Shown here one piece after another: positions 3,241-31,818 of a stretch of 61,320 bases of DNA (the stretch's first letter is position 1; the number at the start of each line of letters is the position of its first letter). The stretch is from an uncultured Rikenellaceae bacterium (GTDB lineage: Bacteria > Bacteroidota > Bacteroidia > Bacteroidales > VadinHA17): contig CAYPHL010000008.1 of the NCBI GenBank assembly GCA_964410385.1, positions 1 through 61,320 on the forward strand. The letters run 5' to 3'. Position numbers and translations under genes: made by a program. Under the pieces are notes generated by a model. The model did not search any database, had not been told where the DNA came from, and was given only the letters and a program-made list of their open reading frames with translations.

Positions 3241-4152
3241 TTATCCAAGACTTATATTTTTCATTCTAGTTATATAATCATCAACCTGGCCGGTCGATTC
3301 AAATCCGACAATTATCATATCTACTGTACCGAGGCCAAGGACATATTTTAAGGAAGGATCAATTTTTTCGGGTTCATTCCTGAACTTACCACCTCCGACT
3401 ACTTTCATTCCGATGACACCCTTCCCGGCTTTATGGAACTTTTCTATGACGGGGACAACAAGAGCAGGATCGCGTTGATCCATATTTTCACCAAATGGAT
3501 TGATCCTGACATGTATAACATCAACCCATGGATCTTCAGCAGCTACTTTAAGTGCATCAAATGAATGAACAGAAACGCCGTGAGCCCTGATCACCTTTTT
3601 TGCTTTCAGATCCTCAAGTCCGTCCATGAATCTCTTCTGCAGGCTTGTCCATTCGCCGGTTGTCATGCAGTGAAGCTGAACAAGGTCGATATAATCTGTA
3701 TTCAGTTCTTTCCTGAACCGGTCAACAACAACCCGGGCATCAGGTCTTTCTGTTTCAGGGATTCCTCCGGGAGTTACCCACATTTTTGTTCCGATAGTAT
3801 ATTTTTCCCTTGGGATGCCTCTGAGTGCAGCCGCTGCGAAAGGATGTGTCCCATAACTGTCGGCACAATCAAAAAACCGTATACCTGATTCATAAGCATG
3901 TCGTATAACAGATTCTGCCACTCCTGCCCTTGTAATTGCTGATGAACGGTTATATCCGCTGTAACCTGTCCCCATTCCAAGCAACGTTGTCCTGATCCCT
4001 GTTTTTCCAAGAGTAATTGTCCGGAACGGATCGGTTGCGGTTCTGGTATTTCCGGCAAATGCTGCACATGAAGCTGAACCGATTAAAATCGTTCCGGCAC
4101 CTGCAGCCACCGTTGTTACAAACTGTCTCCGGCTGAGATTCTTTTTTTCCAT
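3241..4152 (-). CDS. aldo/keto reductase with twin-arginine signal
   Basis: LGKTG, FFDCADSYG (Asp/Tyr), GTK (Lys), DLVQLH (His); N-terminal SRRQFV plus h-region. Confidence 0.88.
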   Translation of the reverse strand: MEKKNLSRRQFVTTVAAGAGTILIGSASCAAFAGNTRTATDPFRTITLGKTGIRTTLLGMGTGYSGYNRSSAITRAGVAESVIRHAYESGIRFFDCADSYGTHPFAAAALRGIPREKYTIGTKMWVTPGGIPETERPDARVVVDRFRKELNTDYIDLVQLHCMTTGEWTSLQKRFMDGLEDLKAKKVIRAHGVSVHSFDALKVAAEDPWVDVIHVRINPFGENMDQRDPALVVPVIEKFHKAGKGVIGMKVVGGGKFRNEPEKIDPSLKYVLGLGTVDMIIVGFESTGQVDDYITRMKNISLG

Positions 4153-4158
4153 CGTATA

Positions 4159-4584
4159 TTATTTTTGCAGATTTAACATTCTTAAAATTTCATCAGGACG
4201 TGAGGGTTTTCCATCCCGGGTTGCCGCACCTGTAATCTTTGCCCTCACAATCAGCTTTTCATCGGGCAACCTGAAAATATCCTGAATAAATACAAGCCGA
4301 ATATAACCTTCCCTGCGAACAGCGGTCCTGATAATAAACCTGTCCCTGCTTCTCAAAGGATATTTATAATCAATTTCAACCCTTGTGATAATGAGATCAG
4401 TACCTTCATCATGAAGCTGTGAAAAACTGATCCCTTCCGAGAGCAGGAATTCATGCCTTGCATGTTCCAGGTAATGCTGATAATTTGCATTATTCACAAC
4501 TCCCTGAAGATCACATTCATAATCCCTCACTGAAAACTCAAGGGAAGAGAGATATTCCGGACTATTCTCTGTTTGTTTCGCCAT
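4159..4584 (-). CDS. acyl-CoA thioesterase (4HBT/YbgC/FadM family)
   Basis: VRDYECDLQGVVNNANYQHYLEHAR hotdog-fold motif. Confidence 0.9.
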   Translation of the reverse strand: MAKQTENSPEYLSSLEFSVRDYECDLQGVVNNANYQHYLEHARHEFLLSEGISFSQLHDEGTDLIITRVEIDYKYPLRSRDRFIIRTAVRREGYIRLVFIQDIFRLPDEKLIVRAKITGAATRDGKPSRPDEILRMLNLQK

Positions 4585-4598
4585 CAGGTAAACTGTGA

Positions 4599-5048
4599 TT
4601 ATTTCGGGAATCTTCTGAAAAATTTCCTGATCCCGGCATGAAATTTATGGACTCCGTGAGGTTTGTAATGCATTAAAATACATTCTTTTGTAATGTAATT
4701 AATCCCTGAACCCTCCAGTTCCTTCATGGCATCACCACTTTCAGCCATCTGCTGGATCCAGATCTGACGGATCCCCTTTTCCTTTGCTTCCCTGATTATA
4801 CCGGCTGTCTTTTGTCGTGAGGTCATTATTATCAGGCTTTTGACATTTTCCGGCAGACTTTTTATGTCAGGGAAAACTTTCACCCCATGAATTTCAGTAG
4901 CGTTCGGGTTTACAGGAATTATGTTCATCCCCTTTTCCTTTAATTCGCGGAAAGCTGCAAATCCGAATTTTTTCGGATTACGGGAAACACCTGCCATTGC
5001 AACCGGTTCCGATGCAATGAATTCTTCAATTTGTTTCAGTGTTACCAT
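4599..5048 (-). CDS. CoA-binding protein (YccU-like)
   Basis: AMAGVSRNPKKFG, IPVNP, IWIQ Rossmann-like pattern. Confidence 0.85.
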   Translation of the reverse strand: MVTLKQIEEFIASEPVAMAGVSRNPKKFGFAAFRELKEKGMNIIPVNPNATEIHGVKVFPDIKSLPENVKSLIIMTSRQKTAGIIREAKEKGIRQIWIQQMAESGDAMKELEGSGINYITKECILMHYKPHGVHKFHAGIRKFFRRFPK

Positions 5049-5198
5049 TTTACTGTAAAATTAAGTGCCTGTTGGCGTGTTGCAATTAAGTATGAATTCT
5101 TTTCTGTGAAATAAGTATAAAGACTTAAAAATACAACAAATAAATCAACCAACATATTTTTTTATTTACTTGGCTGTGCCTAATTTGAATCATCCAAA

Positions 5199-6492: not shown

Positions 6493-7467
6493 TTATTTAT
6501 TTCTTGAAGCCGTATAGTTTACAAACCTCTGTAAAGAATCCCTGATTTCAGATTCCGGATAGGTTCCAAGGATTTCAAGTGCCTTGTCCCGGTATAGGTT
6601 CATTTTTTGTTCGGTAAATTCCGGTCCACCTGAAGATCTTACAAAATCAATCACCTGGCTGATCTCTGCTTTTGTTTTCTTCCTGTTTTTCACAATTGAA
6701 AGGATTTGCCGTCTCACTGATACGGATGCATTCTCAAGAGCATATATAAGGGGAAGTGTGATTTTCCTCTCCTTTATATCATTTCCTGTCAATTTTCCCG
6801 TAAGTCCATTTGGTTCATAATCAAGCAGATCGTCCTTTATCTGGAACGCGATACCTATGTTTTCACCAAAATCCTTCATTTTCCTGATGGTATCAGGATC
6901 TTCTGACACCGACTTTGCACCACAGGCAGTACATGCAGCAATAAGAGCTGCAGTCTTGCTCCTGATTATCCTGTAATAATCATCCACCTTAATATTCATT
7001 TTCCTCGACTTCTGTAGTTGCAGAAGCTCACCTTCGCTCATTGACTTCACTGCATCAGAAACTATCTCAAGCATGTCATAGCGCTTTTTTTCAAGACTTA
7101 TTGCCATTCCCCGCGATAACATATAATCCCCTACCAGAACGGCGATCTTTGAATTCCAGAGGGCATTGACCGACAATGACCCGCGCCTTTCATGTGCATC
7201 ATCAACCACATCGTCGTGTACAAGTGATGCAGTATGAAGAAGTTCTATGAGTGTTGCCGCCACATATGTCGCTTCTGAGATTTTTCCATTGAGCCCTGCT
7301 GTCAGAAAAACCAGCAAAGGCCTCATCTGTTTGCCTTTACGGCGAAGGATATAATTGAGGATGATCTTCAGAAGAGGTATTTCAGTCTTCAATGTCCTGT
7401 TGAAGTAAGCTTCAAACTCACCCATCTCTTTCTCAACAGGTTTTCTTATCTCAGCGAGGATTGACAT
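6493..7467 (-). CDS. ispB: long-chain polyprenyl diphosphate synthase
   Basis: GKQMRP, LVHDDVVD (FARM), FQIKDDLLD (SARM). Chain length cannot be read from sequence alone. Confidence 0.9.
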   Translation of the reverse strand: MSILAEIRKPVEKEMGEFEAYFNRTLKTEIPLLKIILNYILRRKGKQMRPLLVFLTAGLNGKISEATYVAATLIELLHTASLVHDDVVDDAHERRGSLSVNALWNSKIAVLVGDYMLSRGMAISLEKKRYDMLEIVSDAVKSMSEGELLQLQKSRKMNIKVDDYYRIIRSKTAALIAACTACGAKSVSEDPDTIRKMKDFGENIGIAFQIKDDLLDYEPNGLTGKLTGNDIKERKITLPLIYALENASVSVRRQILSIVKNRKKTKAEISQVIDFVRSSGGPEFTEQKMNLYRDKALEILGTYPESEIRDSLQRFVNYTASRNK

Positions 7468-7484
7468 CCGTATTTTATTTCATC

Positions 7485-7492
7485 CAAACTTA
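7485..7492 (-). promoter_or_regulatory. sigma-A -7 box (TAAGTTTG) for ispB
   Basis: Exact TAnnTTTG 17 nt upstream of ATG. Confidence 0.55.
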
Positions 7493-7569
7493 CATAAAAT
7501 ATGACAAAAGAAAACAGTCTGTATGTAATGGTTCCAAATTAAGTCTCCACACATTAACATATTTGTATA

Positions 7570-7577
7570 TATATTTG
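7570..7577 (+). promoter_or_regulatory. sigma-A -7 box (TATATTTG) for ArsR gene
   Basis: Exact TAnnTTTG 16 nt upstream of ATG. Confidence 0.5.
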
Positions 7578-7593
7578 TTTTAAAATTTTCCGG

Positions 7594-7893
7594 ATGGAAT
7601 TCAATGAGCTGAATCCAGAGGTCCTTCAGAAAGCTTCTGAAATGCTGAAAGCCATGGCACATCCTGCCAGAATAAGCATTGTGCGTTTGCTTGAGGACGG
7701 TAAAAAGCAGACTGTAACAGAGATCCACAACAAGCTTGGCATAGGCCAGGCCGTTGCATCGCATCACCTTGTTATTTTGCGCGACAGGGGTGTTTTGTCA
7801 TCATCGAGGGAAGGGAAGAATATTTACTATTTCCTCAGGCATCCGAACCTTGGGAATATGCTCAAAACCCTGGGTGAGTGTTGTAAGGATTGA
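7594..7893 (+). CDS. ArsR/SmtB family transcriptional regulator
   Basis: LKAMAHPARISIV, SHHLVILR, SREGKNIYY winged HTH. Confidence 0.9.
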   Translation: MEFNELNPEVLQKASEMLKAMAHPARISIVRLLEDGKKQTVTEIHNKLGIGQAVASHHLVILRDRGVLSSSREGKNIYYFLRHPNLGNMLKTLGECCKD

Positions 7894-7916
7894 TTTATTG
7901 ACCGGAGCCTGTATTT

Positions 7917-8528
7917 CTACTCAAAGTCCCTGAACATTTTCTTCTGAAAAAGCAATATAGCAAATACTCCACAGGTGATAGCAGAATCAGCAATATTGAA
8001 TACCGGCCGGAAGAAAATAAAAGACTGACCCGGTCTGAAAGGTGACCAGTCGGGCCATGTGGTATTGATAACAGGGAAATAGAGCATATCAACGACTCTT
8101 CCGTGAAGAAATGACGAGTAACCGCCTTCGGGAGGGAAAAGAACAGCAGGTTCATGGAAACTTTCGCTGAAAATCATACCATAAAATGCACTGTCGATAA
8201 TATTCCCGATCGCTCCTGCAAGAATTGCGCTAACTGCCAGTATTAATCCCGTATATGCATTTTTCCTGATTATTGAGTTAAGGAACCATGCTATGGCAAA
8301 AATTGCTATTATCCTGAAGATACTGAGAATAAGCTTCCCCGGCTTGCCGCCCATTTCCATTCCAAAAGCCATTCCGTTATTTTCTATAAAATGCAGCATA
8401 CCCCATTTCCCGATTAACGGAATATCTTCACCGATAACCATATGAGTTTTTACCCAGAATTTCAGTAACTGGTCAAAAAACAAAATAAGTATTATAAGTG
8501 ATATTGCTTTTTTCCCTGATGACATCAC
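7917..8528 (-). CDS. lspA: lipoprotein signal peptidase II (long Bacteroidota type)
   Basis: DQLLK, ENNGMAFG, GAIGNIIDS, VVDM, VFNIADS. Confidence 0.93.
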   Translation of the reverse strand: MMSSGKKAISLIILILFFDQLLKFWVKTHMVIGEDIPLIGKWGMLHFIENNGMAFGMEMGGKPGKLILSIFRIIAIFAIAWFLNSIIRKNAYTGLILAVSAILAGAIGNIIDSAFYGMIFSESFHEPAVLFPPEGGYSSFLHGRVVDMLYFPVINTTWPDWSPFRPGQSFIFFRPVFNIADSAITCGVFAILLFQKKMFRDFE

Positions 8529-23820: not shown

Positions 23821-23828
23821 TAAATTTG
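23821..23828 (+). promoter_or_regulatory. sigma-A -7 box (TAAATTTG) for Crp/Fnr gene
   Basis: Exact TAnnTTTG 16 nt upstream of ATG. Confidence 0.6.
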
Positions 23829-23844
23829 TCAGATTGCAGGAATT

Positions 23845-24540
23845 ATGGAGTTAAAAAACAAGAATTGTATTTGCGAAACCTGTGAATTCAGGCATATAGT
23901 TTTTTCTTATCTCGATGATAATGGAATACTGGAACTGTGCGATAATAAGATTGAACAGGCCTTCAGGAAAGGAGAGATAATCAATCGCGAAGGAGAACCG
24001 GTAACAAGTTTTAAATATCTGAAAAGCGGACTTGTAAAGCTTTTCAGGACTACCCCATCGGGAGAGGAACAGGTAATTACAATTACCCGTCCTTTTGAAT
24101 TTGTAAGCAATATGAGTGTTTTTTCCGGGGAAAAGTACCGTTATTCGGTATCAGCCCTTGAAGATTCCGTAGTTTGTATAGTAAAGCTTTCATTTATTAA
24201 AGACCTCTTCCTGAAAAATGGTGCTTTTGCCATGGGTCTTCTTACGCGGATGGCTGAGATTAATGAAAAGATCATCGGGCAGGCTCTCGATCTCAGGCAG
24301 AAAAACCTGATCGGCCGTATTGCTTATGTTATCCTTTATTTCAGCAAAGAGATCTATAACTCAAGAATATTCGACATGCCTGTCTCCAGAAAAGAGATCG
24401 CTGATTTTATAGGAATGAGTACCGCCAATGTTATCCGGACAATGTCAGAGTTCAAAAAGGATGGGATAATAAAAATTGATGGAAAAACAATTGAGGTAGC
24501 GGATATTAGCAAACTTGAAATACTCTCCCGGCGAGGCTGA
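23845..24540 (+). CDS. Crp/Fnr family regulator with N-terminal Cys cluster
   Basis: cNMP-binding fold (FRKGEII, SGLVKL), C-terminal HTH SRKEIADFIGMSTANVIR; CICETC near N-terminus and VVC in the beta-roll. Confidence 0.9.
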   Translation: MELKNKNCICETCEFRHIVFSYLDDNGILELCDNKIEQAFRKGEIINREGEPVTSFKYLKSGLVKLFRTTPSGEEQVITITRPFEFVSNMSVFSGEKYRYSVSALEDSVVCIVKLSFIKDLFLKNGAFAMGLLTRMAEINEKIIGQALDLRQKNLIGRIAYVILYFSKEIYNSRIFDMPVSRKEIADFIGMSTANVIRTMSEFKKDGIIKIDGKTIEVADISKLEILSRRG

Positions 24541-24566
24541 TAATCCATTTTTTCAAATAATACCCG

Positions 24567-26513
24567 ATGAAGAGATTTGCCCTGTTTTTATGCTTGCTGA
24601 TTGTTACAACAGCAATTTCCTCCCAACCCCTGCCTCAATCTCAACCTAAGCCTCAGCCTCAGCCTCAGGAGGTTCAGAAGCCCGTAGGACAGGTTAATTA
24701 TACCCTTTCAGGAATGAGGCACGGAGTAAATTATTTTCCTGAAGTCCGGCTGGCAAATGTTCAGTATGAGACAGGAAAGGAGCTCACTTTTGACAATTAC
24801 CATTCCCTCAATGTCATCTATGACTGGCTCGACATCTGGGCTGAAAAGTACAAAGATCTTGTTGAGCTTTACGAAGTCGGCAGAAGCTTTGAAGGCAGGC
24901 CTATGATGCAAATTACTGTTACAAATAAAAAAACCGGAAAAGATACAGATAAGCCTGCGGCATTTTTTGAAGGAGGCCGTCACAGCGGTGAGGTTACCGG
25001 ATCAGAGACTGTTCTATGGCTTACAAAATTCCTCCTGGAGAATTATGGGACTGATCCGGATATAACTCATCTTCTTGATACCAAAACCATCTATTTACGT
25101 CCGGTGAATAATCCCGACGGGCATAACCTCTATCTCCATACCGCCCAGAGCAACAGGAGTACCGTACGTCCGGTTGATAACGACGGCGATGGTCTGCTGG
25201 ATGAAGACGCTCCTGACGATCTCGACAATAACGGGATAATCCATAATATGAGGTGGAAAGATGATAAGAAGGGGAATCTCATACCCGATCCTAAAGATCC
25301 TTCAGGAAGTATAATGAAACGGGTTGCCCCGGGAAAAGGTATCTATCTTTCTGCATCCGAAGGCATTGATAATGATAATGACGGCCGGATTAATGAGGAT
25401 GGTATCGGAGGACTGGACCTTCACAGGAACTATCCCGAGAACTGGAGACCTCTGAAGGAAGAAACCGGACGGGGATTTACCCAGGGAGGGGCAGGAGAAT
25501 ACCCCCTCAGCGAATCTGAAACAAGGGCAGTAGTGACTTTCCTTCTTGCACATCCAAATGTTTATGTGGTTAATTCCATGGATACAAGTGTACCCATGCA
25601 CCTCAGACCACCATCAACCTCAGGATCCGAAGAAAGAATGTACCCCGAAGACTTAAAATGGTATAAATACTTTGATGATCTGGGAAAGAAGATAACCGGG
25701 TATGACAAAGCCGGAGATGTTTATAATGATTATGGCAGCGGAAGCCCTCTGTTCGGTCATGGCCCTGACTTCGGATACTGGTATTTCGGCTCGGTCTGGT
25801 ATGGCGATGAAATATGGAACAGCGGCAGGTTCGGGGACCTTAACGGGGATAGTATAACTGATCAGATTGACATGCTGATATGGGATAATAAAGAGAACAA
25901 CGGAGAAGGTTTCAGCGAATGGAAACCGGCCAGACACCCTGTTTATGGAGATATTGAAACTGGCGGATTTGATCCTAAGTTCTTCTCCCAGAATCCACCG
26001 GCACGCTTTCTTGAAAAATGGATCAGGAACCAGGCTTCATTCAATATCGAAATGGTAAAACATCTTCCCGAACTGGAATGGGAAAAAATTGAAAGCAGAA
26101 AAACCAGATCATATAAAACCGATTCTGCAGATTATCAGGTTAAGGTAAGTTTCAGGAACAAGGGAAAGCTCCCAACGGCATTTAAACAGGCTCACCTTGT
26201 TAAGATCGTTACTGAGGACAGGGTTGTCCTCGAACTTGATACAACTGGAACTTCAGCTGGAACAACGGGTTATAAAGTACTTAATGAAGAAAAAGTACAA
26301 ACGGGACGTGAAAGAAGAGGATCCATGCAGTTTAATGATCAGCCTCCGCAAAGACGACCTGTCTTTAAAACAGTACCCTATACGGATGGAGGATCAGTAA
26401 CAACAGCTGTTTTCAATATCAGACTTTATAAACGGAATGAATTATCAGGTAAGGCAAGCGTTTATTCAACAAGAGGAGGGATATTAAAAGATAAGGATTT
26501 TATTATCAGGTAG
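24567..26513 (+). CDS. secreted M14-family zinc carboxypeptidase
   Basis: Signal peptide; GRSFEGR, HSGE, NNPDG, DLHRNY, PLSESET; several Dx[DN]xDG-like Ca-binding loops. Confidence 0.88.
   Translation: MKRFALFLCLLIVTTAISSQPLPQSQPKPQPQPQEVQKPVGQVNYTLSGMRHGVNYFPEVRLANVQYETGKELTFDNYHSLNVIYDWLDIWAEKYKDLVELYEVGRSFEGRPMMQITVTNKKTGKDTDKPAAFFEGGRHSGEVTGSETVLWLTKFLLENYGTDPDITHLLDTKTIYLRPVNNPDGHNLYLHTAQSNRSTVRPVDNDGDGLLDEDAPDDLDNNGIIHNMRWKDDKKGNLIPDPKDPSGSIMKRVAPGKGIYLSASEGIDNDNDGRINEDGIGGLDLHRNYPENWRPLKEETGRGFTQGGAGEYPLSESETRAVVTFLLAHPNVYVVNSMDTSVPMHLRPPSTSGSEERMYPEDLKWYKYFDDLGKKITGYDKAGDVYNDYGSGSPLFGHGPDFGYWYFGSVWYGDEIWNSGRFGDLNGDSITDQIDMLIWDNKENNGEGFSEWKPARHPVYGDIETGGFDPKFFSQNPPARFLEKWIRNQASFNIEMVKHLPELEWEKIESRKTRSYKTDSADYQVKVSFRNKGKLPTAFKQAHLVKIVTEDRVVLELDTTGTSAGTTGYKVLNEEKVQTGRERRGSMQFNDQPPQRRPVFKTVPYTDGGSVTTAVFNIRLYKRNELSGKASVYSTRGGILKDKDFIIR
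24621..24668 (+). repeat. hexamer repeat encoding SQPLPQSQPKPQPQPQ
   Basis: CCTCAG/CCTCAA/TCTCAA units; 24633-24655 matches polA 13620-13642 at 22 of 23 nt. Confidence 0.85.
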
Positions 26514-26594
26514 AGGGAGGACGATAATAATTTATATTTTAGCCGCGAAAAATTTCAGACAACCAGAATAGACTACATTTAATCAGATCACTAT

Positions 26595-28127
26595 ATGAAA
26601 ATTGAAGAACACAGCATAAGGGATATCCCCCGCAGGCGCTTTCTTGAGCTGGGAATGAAAGGAGGATTGCTGATTGCAGCATCACCTGCTCTTTTGTCTC
26701 AGCTGGTATCCTGCAGCAGCAGTAATACGGCTTCTCCCGGTTTGAATATTGATAACGCTACTCTCGGCAAAGTCATTGCCAGGGCTCTTTCCCGGGGAGG
26801 TGATTTTGCTGATATCTATCTCGAAAACCGTATCTCGAGGCAGATAACTATGGAAGAATCACAATTCAGGGGCGGCTTATATGGTATAAGCCAGGGAGCC
26901 GGTGTCAGAGTTATTTCAGGAAATAAGACCGGGTATGCTTATACTGATGAGATAACTGAAGCTAAACTTCTGAGAGCTGCCGAAGTGGCTTCTTACGTGG
27001 CTCAGAATGGCAGTCCTGCCACACCCGTGAATATTACTTCCGCGAGCCGGCCATCCTTTGTTACTGTTAAATTACCGCTTGGCGAAATTTCGGATGAGAA
27101 AAGAATAGAGATCATAAAAAGGGCCGACCAGGCAGCAAAAGATTATGATCCGCGGATCAAAATGGCAATGATTGAGTATAATGATGAAGTAAGGAGCCGC
27201 GTGATAGCTAACAGCGAGGGATTATATCTCAGGGATGAGCTTCCGCTTCTTTTCTTTATCGTTCAGGTGATGAGTGATAACGGATCAGCCCGTCATATGG
27301 CACGTGAAAGATTAAGTCTTCATTCCGGTTTTGAGATGTTTGATACGGTCACTCCGGAAACTGTAGCCCGGAATGCAGCAAGGGAAGCTGTTGCAATGCT
27401 CGATGCAGAAGATGCACCTGCCGGAATGATGGATGTTGTAATGCAGAATGGCTGGGGAGGAGTCCTTGTCCATGAAGCCGTAGGCCATCCTCTCGAAGCC
27501 GATAATATTGCAAAAGAGGTCGGGGCATTTACAGGAAAGCTGGGACTGAAGGTTGCAAATGAATGCTTTACAATGGTTGACGATGGTACCCTGCCAAATT
27601 TCAGGGGAACTATCAATTTTGATGATGAGGGAACAGAAGCAAAACGGAACGTATTAATTGAGAATGGAGTTCTGAAGGGATTCATGACCGACATTCTCAG
27701 TGCCCGGCAACTTTCAATGGAAAGGACCGGTAACGGAAGAAGAGAATCATTCAGGTACATCCCGATACCACGTATGACAAATACCTTCATTGAGAACGGG
27801 AAAGATAATCCGGAAGATATCCTTGCATCCACAAAGAAAGGTATCTATGTCCAGAGCCTCAGCGGGGGTAGTGTTAATCCTGTAACCGGGGTCTTCAACT
27901 TTACATGCAGGGAAGCTTACCTTATCGAGAACGGTAAAAAGACCAGACCTGTTAAAGGAGCTACACTTATAGGATCCTGCATGGATGTTATTTCAAATAT
28001 TGATGCTGTGGGGAACGACCTTGCATTCGGTCCCGGGATATGCGGAAAAGGCCAGTCTGCTGAAGTTACAGCAGGCCAGCCGACAGTGAGGATCAGAGGA
28101 ATTAATGTTGGTGGCAGCAGAGCTTAA
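26595..28127 (+). CDS. tldD: TldD metalloprotease subunit with Tat-lipoprotein signal
   Basis: GAGVRV, HEAVGH (HExxxH), DDEG, TGNGRR, RMTNT, C-terminal ICGK; N-terminal RRRFLE and LVS-C40. Confidence 0.92.
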   Translation: MKIEEHSIRDIPRRRFLELGMKGGLLIAASPALLSQLVSCSSSNTASPGLNIDNATLGKVIARALSRGGDFADIYLENRISRQITMEESQFRGGLYGISQGAGVRVISGNKTGYAYTDEITEAKLLRAAEVASYVAQNGSPATPVNITSASRPSFVTVKLPLGEISDEKRIEIIKRADQAAKDYDPRIKMAMIEYNDEVRSRVIANSEGLYLRDELPLLFFIVQVMSDNGSARHMARERLSLHSGFEMFDTVTPETVARNAAREAVAMLDAEDAPAGMMDVVMQNGWGGVLVHEAVGHPLEADNIAKEVGAFTGKLGLKVANECFTMVDDGTLPNFRGTINFDDEGTEAKRNVLIENGVLKGFMTDILSARQLSMERTGNGRRESFRYIPIPRMTNTFIENGKDNPEDILASTKKGIYVQSLSGGSVNPVTGVFNFTCREAYLIENGKKTRPVKGATLIGSCMDVISNIDAVGNDLAFGPGICGKGQSAEVTAGQPTVRIRGINVGGSRA

Positions 28128-28146
28128 ACAATCAACAAGGGAAAAA

Positions 28147-29478
28147 ATGAACAATTTGGATTTATCCGGAAAACTGGTAAAGAAATGTATCAGTATTGGT
28201 GCATCGGCAGCCGAAGTATTTCTTGAATCAAACAGGAACCTGTCTGTGAATGTGCTGAAGTCGGAAATTGAAACCATCGAGGAAGCCTCTTCGCAGGGAG
28301 TAGGTTTCAGGGTGTTTGTTGACGGAAAGATGGGATTCAGCCATTGTAACGATCTTAGCGACAAATCGCTGGAGGATACAATAGCAAAGGCCATTGCATT
28401 TGCAAAGCTTTCTTCACCCGATGAGAATAATGTTCTTACCGATGATAAAGGATTTACACAGGTGGCAGATCTTTATGATCCCGGAATTGTCTCAGAGCCG
28501 ATGGATAAAAAGATAAAAATGGCTCTGGAACTTGAAAAACTTGCCCTGAAGGAGCCGGGAATAACAAAAAGCTCGGGTGCAGGTTACGGGGAAAGCGAAT
28601 CAGAGATCTTTATAGCTAATTCAAACGGATTACTGAAGAGTTTCAAGGCCTCAGCCTGTTTCGCAGGAGTATCTGTCGTTGCTGAAAAGGGTGACCAGAA
28701 AAATACAGGGGGAGAGTATTGTTCCAGAGTTTATTTTTCTGATCTTCCGCCTCTTGACAAGATAGCGGCCACAGCATCAAAGAGGGCTCTGGAACTGCTG
28801 GACCCGGTTATGATAAAAACCCAGAAAGCTGCGGTTATAATTGACCCGGATGTTTCCCGCTTCCTGGGAGGCATACTTTCAGCAGTTAACGGTGAACGCG
28901 TCCTCCAGGGTGCAAGTTTTCTGAAAGACCAGATGAATAAACAGTTTGCTTCACCTCTTCTTACAATTACTGATGACGGTACTATCCCCAGGAGCACGGG
29001 AAGTTCACCCTTCGACGGGGAAGGTGTGCCTACAATGAAAAATATTATTGTTGATAAAGGCGTCCTGCGGAGCTTTATTTATAATACAAGAGCAGCCAGG
29101 CGTGCCGGAGTGAAGAGTACAGGGAATGCATCCAGAAACGGCTTCAGCTCACTTCCGGGAATAGGAACCCATAAGGTATACCTGGCCGGGGGAAACCAAT
29201 CACGGGACGAAATTATTGCTGCCACTGCAAGAGGGTTGCTCGTACTTGAACTGACAGGTTATGGAATCGACCCTGTGACCGGTAATTTCAGCGGCGGGGC
29301 AAGCGGACTATGGATTGAAAAAGGCGAGATATTACACCCTGTAAAAGGAGTTACAATCGCCGGAAAAGCGTTTGATATCCTCAATGCAATTGATATGATG
29401 GGGAATGATATCGACATGAACCAGGGTTTTGCAGCTCCGACATTCAGGATAGCAGAGATGCAGATAGGAGGTAAATGA
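28147..29478 (+). CDS. pmbA: PmbA/TldE subunit
   Basis: GVGFRV, FDGEG, TGNA, VTGNFS, VTIAG, APT; no HExxxH; no signal. Start at MNNLD preferred over the track's 28105. Confidence 0.9.
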   Translation: MNNLDLSGKLVKKCISIGASAAEVFLESNRNLSVNVLKSEIETIEEASSQGVGFRVFVDGKMGFSHCNDLSDKSLEDTIAKAIAFAKLSSPDENNVLTDDKGFTQVADLYDPGIVSEPMDKKIKMALELEKLALKEPGITKSSGAGYGESESEIFIANSNGLLKSFKASACFAGVSVVAEKGDQKNTGGEYCSRVYFSDLPPLDKIAATASKRALELLDPVMIKTQKAAVIIDPDVSRFLGGILSAVNGERVLQGASFLKDQMNKQFASPLLTITDDGTIPRSTGSSPFDGEGVPTMKNIIVDKGVLRSFIYNTRAARRAGVKSTGNASRNGFSSLPGIGTHKVYLAGGNQSRDEIIAATARGLLVLELTGYGIDPVTGNFSGGASGLWIEKGEILHPVKGVTIAGKAFDILNAIDMMGNDIDMNQGFAAPTFRIAEMQIGGK

Positions 29479-29526: not shown

Positions 29527-29534
29527 TACTTTTG
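29527..29534 (+). promoter_or_regulatory. sigma-A -7 box (TACTTTTG), overlapped by the 16-bp palindrome at 29530-29545
   Basis: TAnnTTTG upstream of second PFK; TTTTGAAATTTCAAAA is self-complementary. Confidence 0.55.
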
Positions 29535-30783: not shown

Positions 30784-30805
30784 TTGTATTTACGGATTAT
30801 TTTAC

Positions 30806-30888
30806 ACGATGATATATCGTTGTTGAGACGGCCAAATTGGGCGTCCTTACGATACGATGATAGAGACGCCCAAATTGGGCGTCTCAAC
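30806..30888. repeat. REP-like palindrome doublet
   Basis: GAGACG(G/C)CCAAATTGGGCGTC at 30825-30847 and 30863-30885; outer inverted repeat GTTGAGACG / CGTCTCAAC; ACGATGATA precedes both copies. Confidence 0.75.
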
Positions 30889-30891
30889 TAT

Positions 30892-31818
30892 ATGGAAGAG
30901 GGCATTGTCATAAAATCTACAGGCAGCCGGTACAGGGTTCTTTGCACGGATGGGAATGTTGTCGATTGTATCATCAAAGGAAAATTCAGGGTAAAGGAAC
31001 TGAAAAATACTAATCCCATCGCTGTCGGAGACAGGGTCCGCTTTGAATTTGAGCAAAGTAAAAGTTCAGGTATAATAACCGAACTACTTGACCGTAAAAA
31101 TTATATACTGCGGAAGTCATCAAACCTTTCAAAACAATCCCAGATACTTGCTGCAAACGTTGACCATGTTTTCCTGATGATTACAATTTCATATCCTGAA
31201 ACGCCGGTGGAGTTTATCGACCGTTTCCTGATCACCGCTGAAGCATACAGGATCCCTGCAGGTATCATTATAAATAAAACGGATCTTTATGATGAAGAAG
31301 AAAAATCAAGGATGGATCACCTGGTGTCGGTTTATGAAAAGATCGGATATAGATGTTTCACAATATCACTAAAAAACAAGGATGGTCTTGAATCATTGAT
31401 TGCCCTGATGAAAGATAAGATCAGCCTGATAGCTGGTAATTCAGGTGTGGGAAAGACAACTCTGCTTAATTCATTGAATCCGGCTCTTAACCTGAAAACG
31501 GAGGAGATCTCGGATTATCACAAACAGGGTAAACACATTACCACCTTCCCCGAAATGCACCACATGCCTTTCGGAGCTTACCTGATCGATTCTCCGGGAA
31601 TCAGGGGATTCGGGGTTGTTGATATGGACAGAAATGAGATTTATCACTTCTTCCCCGAGATTTTCCGGATCTCTCAGGATTGCAGATTCTATAACTGCCT
31701 TCATATCGATGAACCGGGCTGTTCGGTGAGAAATGCCGTTGAAAAAGGTAAGATTGATCCCCTGAGGTACAGAAGCTATCTCAATATCCTTGAGGATGAT
31801 AATCGTAAATACCGATAA
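30892..31818 (+). CDS. rsgA: small-subunit-dependent GTPase A
   Basis: OB fold, NKTD, GNSGVGKTT, DSPG, CRFYNCLHIDEPGC Zn site. The track's extra 36 aa are read-through of the repeat. Confidence 0.95.
   Translation: MEEGIVIKSTGSRYRVLCTDGNVVDCIIKGKFRVKELKNTNPIAVGDRVRFEFEQSKSSGIITELLDRKNYILRKSSNLSKQSQILAANVDHVFLMITISYPETPVEFIDRFLITAEAYRIPAGIIINKTDLYDEEEKSRMDHLVSVYEKIGYRCFTISLKNKDGLESLIALMKDKISLIAGNSGVGKTTLLNSLNPALNLKTEEISDYHKQGKHITTFPEMHHMPFGAYLIDSPGIRGFGVVDMDRNEIYHFFPEIFRISQDCRFYNCLHIDEPGCSVRNAVEKGKIDPLRYRSYLNILEDDNRKYR

Follow-up and report, generated by a model that had tools for sequence, protein, structure and literature searches.

A candidate Tat-exported TldD/TldE protease, with an export leader on TldD only, in a wastewater Bacteroidales bacterium

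In a wastewater Bacteroidales bacterium, we found a TldD/TldE locus in which only TldD carries an export leader. We favour, with moderate confidence, a reading in which TldD is exported by the Tat pathway, is lipid-anchored in this clade, and carries TldE along as a folded heterodimer that would degrade unfolded periplasmic peptides. This reading starts from what can be observed directly, namely the sequence features, their conservation and the architecture of the gene pair. TldD and TldE are nearly universal in bacteria and archaea and are treated as cytoplasmic; in E. coli the two genes are unlinked and both proteins are cytoplasmic. Established roles of the family are the processing of microcin B17 and CcdA, and its general physiology beyond these is not settled. 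An earlier note on this DNA had presented the locus as a candidate new system, but it is a known protease in a new arrangement, as a putatively exported variant.

Gene order and the two subunits

Four plus-strand genes (23845-29478) of the window, that is, the whole 61,320-nucleotide stretch of DNA analysed, are likely to form one transcription unit, with a Crp/Fnr-family regulator as its likely first gene. This regulator (23845..24540, 231 aa) matches the Pfam models cNMP_binding and HTH_Crp_2; its best NCBIfam match is Fnr, under the cut-off of that model, and its Cys residues lie at positions 8, 10, 13, 32 and 111. The following genes encode an M14 zinc carboxypeptidase homologue (24567..26513, 648 aa; Pfam Peptidase_M14, E = 2e-38), the TldD metalloprotease subunit precursor (26595..28127, 510 aa; identified by Pfam, NCBIfam and its match to E. 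coli TldD), and the PmbA/TldE non-catalytic partner subunit (28147..29478, 443 aa), which begins 19 nt past the TldD stop at 28127. The successive intergenic gaps are 26, 81 and 19 nt. A Bacteroidetes-type -7 promoter motif (TAAATTTG, 23821..23828, plus strand) lies 17 nt 5' of the Crp/Fnr start and is the sole plus-strand TAnnTTTG up to 29527, where the next one (TACTTTTG, 29527..29534, plus strand) is found 20 nt 5' of a phosphofructokinase gene and is likely to mark the downstream boundary of the unit; between 23821 and 29534 the plus strand thus has such motifs before Crp and before phosphofructokinase only. Since TAnnTTTG occurs at chance level over the whole window, these motifs are positional evidence only. 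Metatranscriptome contigs bridge the Crp-M14 junction and cover the TldD leader, and a further junction, between TldD and PmbA, is also bridged by one. The sigma-70 promoter and terminator scan, whose sigma-70 models are uninformative for Bacteroidota, returned no intergenic terminator.

The window TldD, placed as a catalytic subunit in peptidase family U62/M103, matches all three PmbA_TldD Pfam domains (PF01523, PF19290 and PF19289) and scores 376 bits against the NCBIfam TldD equivalog, below the 513-bit cut-off; by the NCBIfam criterion it is a diverged family member, not an equivalog. Its residues 56-508 match E. coli TldD (5NJ5_A, E = 4e-101) at about 42% identity and with the same three domains (PDB 5NJ5; Ghilarov et al. 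2017, PMC5810440). The AF2 model has a pLDDT of 92.7, with low values at residues 1-50 (below 50 at 39-45), and its top Foldseek match is E. coli TldD (TM 0.93, rmsd 1.5 Å). Judged by its motifs, the protease site is intact. The metal-binding/catalytic motif HEAVGH (residues 293-298; 27471..27488, plus strand) corresponds to E. coli His262/Glu263/His267, and CGK (residues 483-485; 28041..28049, plus strand) supplies both a third ligand of the metal (Cys483) and the tether of the clamp (Lys485), the equivalents of E. coli Cys454 and Lys456 (PMC5810440). H293, E294 and H298 do not vary in an alignment of 61 TldD sequences, where C483 is at least 90% conserved. Like E. coli TldD, with its HExxxH and Cys metal site, the window protein also has the Glu/Asp clamp residues (PLEAD). 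The full catalytic features that the earlier note had read in TldD are therefore borne out. The E. coli enzyme binds Zn or Fe and works as a closed heterodimer, which unfolded N-termini enter by a narrow channel (PMC5810440).

The window PmbA matches E. coli PmbA with E = 6e-54 and, like the partner in the E. coli pair, lacks the metal site; neither HExxxH nor a signal peptide was found in its 443 residues. It belongs to the same fold family as the PmbA/TldE homologues of B. thetaiotaomicron (BT3649, 1VPB), T. maritima (TM0727, 1VL4) and P. aeruginosa (PmbA, 3QTD), which were solved as homodimers or monomers and, at E = 1e-39 to 1e-47, are no closer to it than E. coli PmbA. A start at the other ATG, at 28105, would lengthen the protein by no more than 14 residues, which are unconserved and overlap TldD, and the start M-N/D-Y...LTEKLV is conserved, leaderless and directly after TldD in all 78 close loci. 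This agrees with the description in the earlier note of a leaderless PmbA 19 nt downstream, a spacing that also sets the window pair apart from that of E. coli.

The leader of TldD

Unlike E. coli TldD and TldE, which have no signal peptides, the window TldD begins with a 40-residue leader (26595..26714, plus strand), which orthologue conservation marks as a putative twin-arginine lipoprotein (Tat/SPII-type) signal, followed by a variable Ser/Gly-rich linker of 15 residues (41-55; 26715..26759, plus strand); the part homologous to E. coli TldD begins with residue 56. The n-region contains RRRFLE (residues 13-18; 26631-26648, plus strand), and the h-region GGLLIAASPALLSQLVS, within the same leader (plus strand), ends in the lipobox LVS-C (residues 37-40; 26703-26714, plus strand), which fits the consensus [LVI]-[ASTVI]-[GAS]-C. 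These elements had been recognized in the earlier note and are supported by 85 orthologues that are 70-93% identical overall. R13, R14 and F16 are invariant in all 85, with six Arg codons in use, while residue 15 alternates between K (48) and R (32). The lipobox Cys is present in 76 of the 85 and offset by one residue in 6 more, and the Ser at -1 in 80. Such conservation at the protein level indicates that the leader is not a chance match and that purifying selection maintains it in the manner of a twin-arginine lipoprotein signal.

The protein could also be imagined to start at the in-frame Met of residue 21 (MKGG) or later, so that the leader would be an annotation artefact and both subunits would be cytoplasmic as in E. 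coli. The earlier note had counted such a start against its own reading. This Met is present in 47 of the 85 orthologues, but the position is occupied by L, I, A, V or F in the other 38; residues 9-20, upstream of it, show strong protein-level conservation with synonymous variation, and stop codons are found 0-36 codons 5' of the TldD start. Moreover, RNA contigs begin at or before 26593 and span the leader, and the h-region and lipobox would remain even in a protein begun at Met21. By these comparisons the true start is MKIEE, not MKGG, and we regard the artefact as scarcely credible.

We also considered whether the leader of this clade is an ordinary Sec lipoprotein signal, with RR as a mere positive n-region; TldD would then cross the membrane unfolded, and PmbA could not follow. 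The leader reads P-R-R-R-F-L-E and thus contains the R-R-x-F-L of the Tat consensus S/T-R-R-x-F-L-K, while the -1 and +5 positions deviate. The Glu in place of Lys after RRxFL would suit a Sec signal, as would the finding that the window leader matches neither Pfam TAT_signal (PF10518) nor TIGR01409 even at E <= 10, although these profiles are only 21-29 positions long and insensitive. Eight residues further on, and still ahead of the h-region, there is a Lys, which also counts against Tat. However, the leader aligns column for column with homologous leaders that pass the cut-offs of these profiles (P0013 with 26.8 and 25.1 bits, P0099 with 23.2 and 18.6, and P0006 with 18.4 for TIGR01409). 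A Sec n-region takes K or R, yet here two Arg are fixed and only the next basic position toggles, and the Tat-specific Phe at +2 is invariant as well. The h-region of 17 uncharged residues, a length within the approximately 13-20 of Tat signals, is weakly hydrophobic (mean hydropathy 1.46 versus 2.76 for the Sec signal of the adjacent M14 protein), so that the signal resembles Tat rather than Sec. A Sec lipoprotein signal therefore seems quite improbable to us.

Tat-dependent lipoproteins have been described in Streptomyces and haloarchaea and form the Tat/SPII class in SignalP 6.0; we are not aware of one from Bacteroidota that has been characterised experimentally. The TldD leader is similar to them in its RR-x-F-L, mildly hydrophobic h-region and L-x-[GAS]-C lipobox, and differs from typical members by the Glu at +5 and Lys at +9 in its n-region and by failing the Tat profile HMMs. 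In Bacteroidota, lipoproteins reach the surface by means of an export signal made up of acidic residues, located at about +2 to +5 from the Cys that is lipidated. The lipobox Cys of the window TldD is directly followed by SSSNTASPG, which has no acidic residue at +2 to +5 or elsewhere; across the 85 orthologues the positions +1 to +4 are S/R/K/G, S/G/N/P, G/Q/S/T and A/G/S/V, and residues 42-45 are variable and non-acidic. This predicts a location facing the periplasm, and the statement in the earlier note that the Ser-rich linker lacks an acidic surface signal holds.

The leader of an aldo/keto reductase encoded elsewhere in the window (3241-4152, minus strand) passes TIGR01409, which implies that the organism uses Tat. 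When E. coli TatA and TatC were compared by phmmer with every ORF in the window and in 172 loci, 1.79 Mb in total, no match was obtained, as would be expected of local neighbourhoods; a TatA motif regex found nothing in the window.

Recurrence of the gene pair and the proposed export of TldE

The earlier note had called for a survey of such TldDs, and twin-arginine (RR) leaders were found to recur, in 21 of 138 related full-length TldD representatives (50%-identity clusters), including other phyla; among these RR-TldD lineages are Aminicenantes/Acidobacteriota and others of high GC. When 22 diverged RR-TldD clusters were aligned, the RR column did not vary. In all 11 distant RR-TldD lineages a leaderless PmbA directly follows, at a distance of -8 to +94 nt, and the locus GC is 43-70%. 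Many RR-TldD lineages have no lipobox Cys, which makes the predicted lipid anchor, as far as the alignments tell, clade-specific; the lipidated TldD of the earlier note is thus a prediction for its own clade (76 of 85, plus the 6 with a shifted Cys) and does not extend to those lineages. A metagenome scan with the RR-TldD alignment, which used a single degenerate pattern, returned mostly leaderless TldDs and only six loci with a leader, about 70% identical to the window TldD; distant lineages were instead reached via the contigs encoding the cluster representatives.

Known Tat hitch-hiker complexes have a twin-arginine signal on one subunit only, as in E. coli hydrogenase-2 (HybO/HybC) and DMSO reductase (DmsA/DmsB). 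The window pair is like them in being, by prediction, a two-subunit metal-containing complex with adjacent genes and the RR leader on one subunit. The known examples are redox enzymes with complex cofactors, whereas this pair would be a protease, and its co-export is deduced. The combination of a Tat-type TldD and a leaderless PmbA has been kept over deep divergence, which is what hitch-hiking predicts. Cytoplasmic pairs, too, have a leaderless PmbA beside TldD by default, and adjacency alone is therefore no proof of co-export.

Accordingly, we weighed the export of TldD by itself, with PmbA remaining cytoplasmic and periplasmic TldD acting as a monomer or homodimer; PmbA would then be a chaperone for folding or proofreading that releases TldD ahead of transport, or would have a separate role. 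On this account the leaderless PmbA is simply the ancestral state, TldE-type homodimer structures (1VL4, 3QTD and 1VPB) offer a parallel, and a Sulfolobus TldD homodimer is reported to be active, according to a citation in PMC5810440. However, E. coli TldD is inactive unless TldE is present (PMC5810440), and the genes of the pair are tightly linked or overlapping across phyla, in the 78 close as well as the 11 distant RR-TldD loci. All exported lineages seen use an RR leader, as would be expected if the cargo had to be assembled before its export. We consider export of TldD alone doubtful.

The proposed joint export, whose route, lipidation, passenger and substrates we infer from homology and comparative evidence, would proceed as follows. 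While still in the cytoplasm, TldD and TldE would fold, take up metal and associate into a closed heterodimeric shell as in E. coli, and the leader on TldD alone would allow Tat to move the folded pair over the inner membrane with TldE as a passenger. The lipobox Cys would then be acylated and the leader cut by signal peptidase II, leaving the complex tethered by the flexible linker of about 15 residues to a periplasm-facing membrane leaflet, where it may degrade unfolded peptides that enter N-terminus first. Whether the TldD/TldE family at large has a widespread, cross-phylum extracytoplasmic branch, with the pre-assembled, metal-loaded heterodimer exported and TldE as a Tat hitch-hiker, is in our view an even call. 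An export leader confined to TldD suggests that the folded pair works outside the cytoplasm, and this arrangement of leader-bearing TldD and leaderless TldE is repeated in distant bacteria; our literature search returned nothing on exported TldD, and no experiment or paper placing any TldD outside the cytoplasm.

If true, a conserved exported branch would extend the TldD/TldE family to a further compartment and probably to further substrates. The few Tat hitch-hiker complexes known would be joined by one that is proteolytic and not redox-active, the first protease exported as a hitch-hiker heterodimer. Gram-negative envelopes would then contain a caged protease specific for unfolded peptides, for peptide scavenging or envelope quality control, and the exported pair would be a handle for genetic tests of Tat co-export. 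NCBI labels the RR-TldD proteins just 'TldD/PmbA family protein'; given this naming and the Tat HMMs that miss the leader of this clade, annotation pipelines will place RR-TldDs in the cytoplasm.

The M14 carboxypeptidase and possible substrates

The product of the gene upstream of TldD has a hydrophobic Sec-type signal peptide (about residues 1-18; h-region mean Kyte-Doolittle 2.76) followed by a Pro/Gln linker; it also contains the zinc motif HSGE and an insert rich in Asp, and is extended at the C-terminus. The Pfam Peptidase_M14 match falls in two stretches. In an alignment with carboxypeptidase A, HSGE corresponds to H69/E72 and the Arg of DLHRNY to R145, while the part expected to hold the third His and the catalytic Glu follows the Asp-rich insert of about 90 residues, in a region without confident alignment to carboxypeptidase A. 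No T9SS C-terminal domain was matched in this protein by Pfam or NCBIfam, and the M14 carboxypeptidase homologue is predicted to be periplasmic. A carboxypeptidase gene with a Sec-type leader, upstream of TldD and behind Crp/Fnr, is therefore present as the earlier note had described it.

The conserved partnership of M14 and TldD that the same note proposed was not upheld. M14 is adjacent to TldD in 45 loci, separated from it by an insert in 7 and absent from 18, of which 7 keep the synteny of the clade and 11 have other neighbourhoods. It adjoins TldD in one Bacteroidales clade only, whose members also share the PHP, Crp, PFK and RsgA synteny, and in the 10 distant lineages for which upstream sequence is available, M14 never lies upstream of RR-TldD. 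Thus, the M14 linkage is local synteny and not obligate. A periplasmic-peptidase theme in the distant loci was considered and dropped, since the M17 aminopeptidase upstream of the pair in one of them (L164) has no signal peptide.

Within this clade, the co-expressed, Sec-exported M14 carboxypeptidase may trim from the C-terminus the same peptide pool that TldD/TldE would trim from the N-terminus, and together they would furnish a proteolytic anaerobe with amino acids for uptake. In ecological terms, this suggests that wastewater and digester Bacteroidales have a periplasmic peptide-trimming module. The context argues weakly for a peptide-catabolic role, as M14 is not obligate and the neighbours in distant lineages are unrelated or cytoplasmic.

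The exported pair might instead mature or destroy a specific exported peptide, such as a RiPP, a signalling peptide or a toxin, with M14 as an unrelated neighbour and no part in bulk catabolism or quality control. The known TldD/TldE roles in peptide maturation, on the microcin B17 leader and CcdA (PMC5810440), the PQQ-linked roles in Gluconobacter found in the literature and the lack of a conserved M14 linkage are in line with this. However, neither a precursor-like small ORF nor a modification enzyme was found within the unit from Crp/Fnr to PmbA, with the intergenic gaps given above, and the 11 distant pair neighbourhoods have no biosynthetic genes in common. Dedication to one such peptide is thus rather unlikely in our view. 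Amino-acid transporters recur near the pair, a nutritional hint that also counts against such dedication: in 6 relatives a gene for an SDF amino-acid/dicarboxylate symporter separates M14 from TldD, on a seventh contig, which is too short to show M14, it immediately precedes TldD, and an amino-acid permease gene is located beside the TldD/PmbA pair in a further locus (L171).

Gene layout and the TldD leader

Four co-oriented genes lie on the forward strand: a Crp/Fnr-family regulator (23845-24540), an M14 zinc carboxypeptidase homologue of 648 aa (24567-26513), TldD (510 aa, 26595-28127, with three PmbA_TldD Pfam domains), and PmbA/TldE (443 aa, 28147-29478), which starts 19 nt past the TldD stop and is followed by phosphofructokinase (PFK) and then RsgA. 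Judging from its sequence, the window protease is a clear TldD/TldE family member. TldD matches E. coli TldD (5NJ5_A) across residues 56-508 (E = 4e-101) and retains HEAVGH at 293-298, the PLEAD clamp residues, and Cys483/Lys485 within CGK. Its AlphaFold2 model, built from a 61-sequence alignment, has a mean pLDDT of 92.7, with low confidence limited to residues 1-50, and superposes on E. coli TldD with a TM of 0.93 and an rmsd of 1.5 Å. PmbA matches E. coli PmbA (E = 6e-54), and inspection of its 443-aa sequence found no HExxxH. Every sequence statement of the earlier note on this interval was correct, including the catalytic features of TldD, the leaderless PmbA 19 nt downstream, and the secreted-type M14 gene directly upstream, behind the Crp/Fnr gene.

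Sequences nearly identical to the window occur in activated-sludge, wastewater, bioreactor, and anaerobic-digester metagenomes, and its nearest genomes, with a TldD identity of 92-93%, are uncultured Bacteroidales/'Rikenellaceae' MAGs. The public gene call places the PmbA start at ATG 28105, giving 457 aa and a 23-nt overlap with TldD; the 14 extra residues are unconserved among orthologues, and thus 28147 was taken as the start. Similarly, the mechanical RsgA ORF starts at TTG 30784 (344 aa, forward strand) and is probably over-extended (30784-30891), since the public gene call (308 aa) starts at 30892, as does the Pfam RsgA_N match. The Crp/Fnr regulator contains Cys at residues 8, 10, 13, 32, and 111, a spacing that resembles FNR Fe-S cluster ligands; a response of the M14-TldD-PmbA unit to oxygen or redox state is therefore possible.

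The twin-arginine (RR) lipobox leader proposed for TldD was compared with 80 related loci taken from species-representative genomes, each an uncultured Bacteroidales-type MAG (TldD 75-93% identical), and six further loci from metagenomes (approximately 70% TldD identity). At all related loci, an upstream stop lies just a few codons before the ORF start, and the encoded leader is the same. Among the 85 sequences used for column statistics, Arg13, Arg14, and Phe16 are invariant, with all six Arg codons in use; the basic position adjoining RR alternates between K (48) and R (32), and conservation is strong at Pro12, at Gly23, and in the h-region. The lipobox has Ser at -1 in 80/85 and Cys in 76/85, six others being displaced by a one-residue insertion. 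The leader is therefore real, and the reported lack of an acidic surface signal also held: the four positions past the lipobox Cys are variable and acidic in none of the 85 sequences. A start at MKGG (Met21), which the earlier note had named as a finding that would speak against its reading, is very unlikely, because Met21 is present in only 47/85 sequences (L, I, A, V, or F in the other 38); the start at 26595 stands. Sludge and digester metatranscriptomes yielded contigs that cover the TldD leader and bridge the Crp-M14 and TldD-PmbA junctions, with DNA carry-over in these runs possible.

Probable Tat recognition and distribution of RR-leader TldDs

The two Arg-only positions beside one that tolerates Lys point to Tat recognition rather than a Sec n-region. 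Moreover, the h-region of the TldD leader is weakly hydrophobic (mean Kyte-Doolittle 1.46) compared with the Sec-type signal of the adjoining M14 (2.76). At thresholds as loose as E <= 10, the window leader itself matches neither Pfam TAT_signal nor TIGR01409. Its motif, P-RR-R-F-L-E, is followed by a Lys eight residues further along, so that the h-region begins later than usual. It aligns column for column with diverged TldD leaders, several of which exceed curated Tat-profile cut-offs: among representatives of 50%-identity clusters, P0013 passes with 26.8 and 25.1 bits, P0099 with 23.2 and 18.6 bits, and P0006 passes TIGR01409 with 18.4 bits. The window leader is a predicted member of the recognised Tat/SPII class, and it is very likely that TldD would be exported by Tat. 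Neither tatA nor tatC was found in the window or in 1.79 Mb of related loci, which represent local neighbourhoods only.

The window also encodes an aldo/keto reductase (Pfam PF00248, 3241-4152, reverse strand) with a twin-arginine leader, MEKKNLSRRQFVTT...LIGSASC, which terminates in a possible lipobox Cys and makes this protein a second candidate Tat (lipo)protein of the genome. As this leader passes TIGR01409 (18.6 bits, cut-off 16.7), the organism probably uses Tat.

When 1.84 billion cluster representatives were searched exhaustively with phmmer, 15,585 TldD family members were recovered, the best 150 of which were surveyed for leaders. Of the 138 full-length sequences among these 150, 21 have an RR-x-[F/L] leader at the N-terminus, with an uncharged stretch after it; some RR leaders in this set have a lipobox Cys, and many have none and resemble Tat/SPI signals. 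The five closest neighbours of the window TldD all bear RR leaders, compared with a base rate of 15%. Cluster members come from Candidatus Aminicenantes/Acidobacteriota and Bacteroidota and carry no more specific name than 'TldD/PmbA family protein' or 'metalloprotease TldD', and the GC content of RR-TldD loci ranges from 43 to 70%. Leader frequency, phylum sources, and GC range indicate that RR-TldD is a broad multi-phylum subfamily not peculiar to this genome, to which the predicted lipid anchor is a clade-level addition. In an alignment of 22 diverged RR-TldDs, the metal motifs of P0061 and P0110 are degenerate (HYAVGQ and HKIIGH, columns ~322-327), and both may be inactive exported paralogues.

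Proposed co-export of PmbA

PmbA begins with M-(N/D/K)-Y-x-x-L-T-E-K-L-V in 78/78 close loci having downstream sequence, and the in-frame stretch upstream of this start is unconserved and overlaps TldD in all of them. PmbA also lies directly downstream of TldD in 11/11 distant RR-TldD contigs (P0002, P0004, P0006, P0007, P0011, P0013, P0014, P0018, P0080, P0099, and P0103/P0167), with a spacing of -8 to +94 nt; nine of these genes are complete (438-451 aa) and two are cut at the contig end. No PmbA leader was found in the 10 distant lineages with DNA available. Adjacency alone is no proof of co-export, since a leaderless PmbA beside TldD is likewise the norm for cytoplasmic pairs. However, such tight coupling through deep divergence would be hard to explain with separate final compartments. 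The Tat route is used for folded, cofactor-loaded, or oligomeric cargo, and an RR leader is present in every exported TldD lineage seen. In E. coli, TldD requires TldE for activity and forms with it a closed shell around the Zn/Fe site (PMC5810440). Taken together, the TldE dependence in E. coli, the shared RR leader, and the lasting pair linkage favour co-export of TldE, which appears rather probable given TldD export.

Tat hitch-hiker redox enzymes likewise have the signal on one subunit only. A full-text literature search found no paper describing an extracytoplasmic TldD or PmbA or tying either to Tat, and the reference paper on the E. coli structure is silent on periplasm and secretion (PMC5810440). 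The novelty lies in the combination of a known protease, a Tat/SPII leader, and a one-subunit signal, plus evidence of cross-phylum conservation. The label 'new system' was too strong for a known family with a recognised leader class, and M14 would not be a defining partner; an exported TldD/TldE is a good hypothesis of moderate interest that is cheap to test.

M14 and other neighbouring genes

Linkage to M14, put forward in the earlier note as part of the system, was retained only within the clade. M14 directly adjoins TldD in 45 of the 80 genome loci and lies upstream with a gene inserted before TldD in seven; it is absent from 18, either despite retained Crp/PHP synteny (7/80) or in a different neighbourhood (11/80), and 10/80 could not be called. 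Contig sequence upstream of TldD is available for 10 distant lineages, and M14 is present there in none of them. M14-bearing loci also have PHP, Crp, PFK, and RsgA in common, and the link is therefore ordinary clade-level synteny that does not mark M14 as a defining partner. Neighbours in distant lineages include M17, on which no signal peptide was found, Peptidase_C25, NifU/cysteine desulfurase, and thioredoxin.

Within the clade, a shared function of M14 and TldD/E is somewhat favoured by several features. A periplasmic location is predicted for both products, their genes in the window are 81 nt apart, and no Bacteroidetes -7 motif was found on the forward strand between the Crp and PFK promoters. 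Furthermore, an SDF-family amino-acid/dicarboxylate symporter gene lies between M14 and TldD at six related Bacteroidales loci (L042, L044, L045, L049, L058, and L071); that of L042 (6678-7901, forward strand, 407 aa, Pfam SDF E = 4e-124) is of the sodium:dicarboxylate/amino-acid type. L048 has the same gene upstream of TldD on a contig not long enough to reach the M14 position, and an amino-acid permease gene (3690-5057, reverse strand) flanks the distant RR-TldD/PmbA pair of L171.

In addition, a 1319-aa Peptidase_C25 (gingipain-like) protein is encoded directly upstream of the pair on the P0014 contig, and an HtrA/DegP-type PDZ protease (6913-8268, reverse strand) near the distant pair of L167. 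With the permease, these neighbours provide a suggestive but inconsistent link to extracytoplasmic proteolysis. The features listed for a shared M14 and TldD/E function fit, weakly, peptide scavenging by proteolytic anaerobes of wastewater and digesters. Substrate entry with the N-terminus first has been proposed for E. coli TldD/E (PMC5810440); speculatively, N-terminal trimming by TldD/E combined with C-terminal trimming by M14 would be consistent with it.
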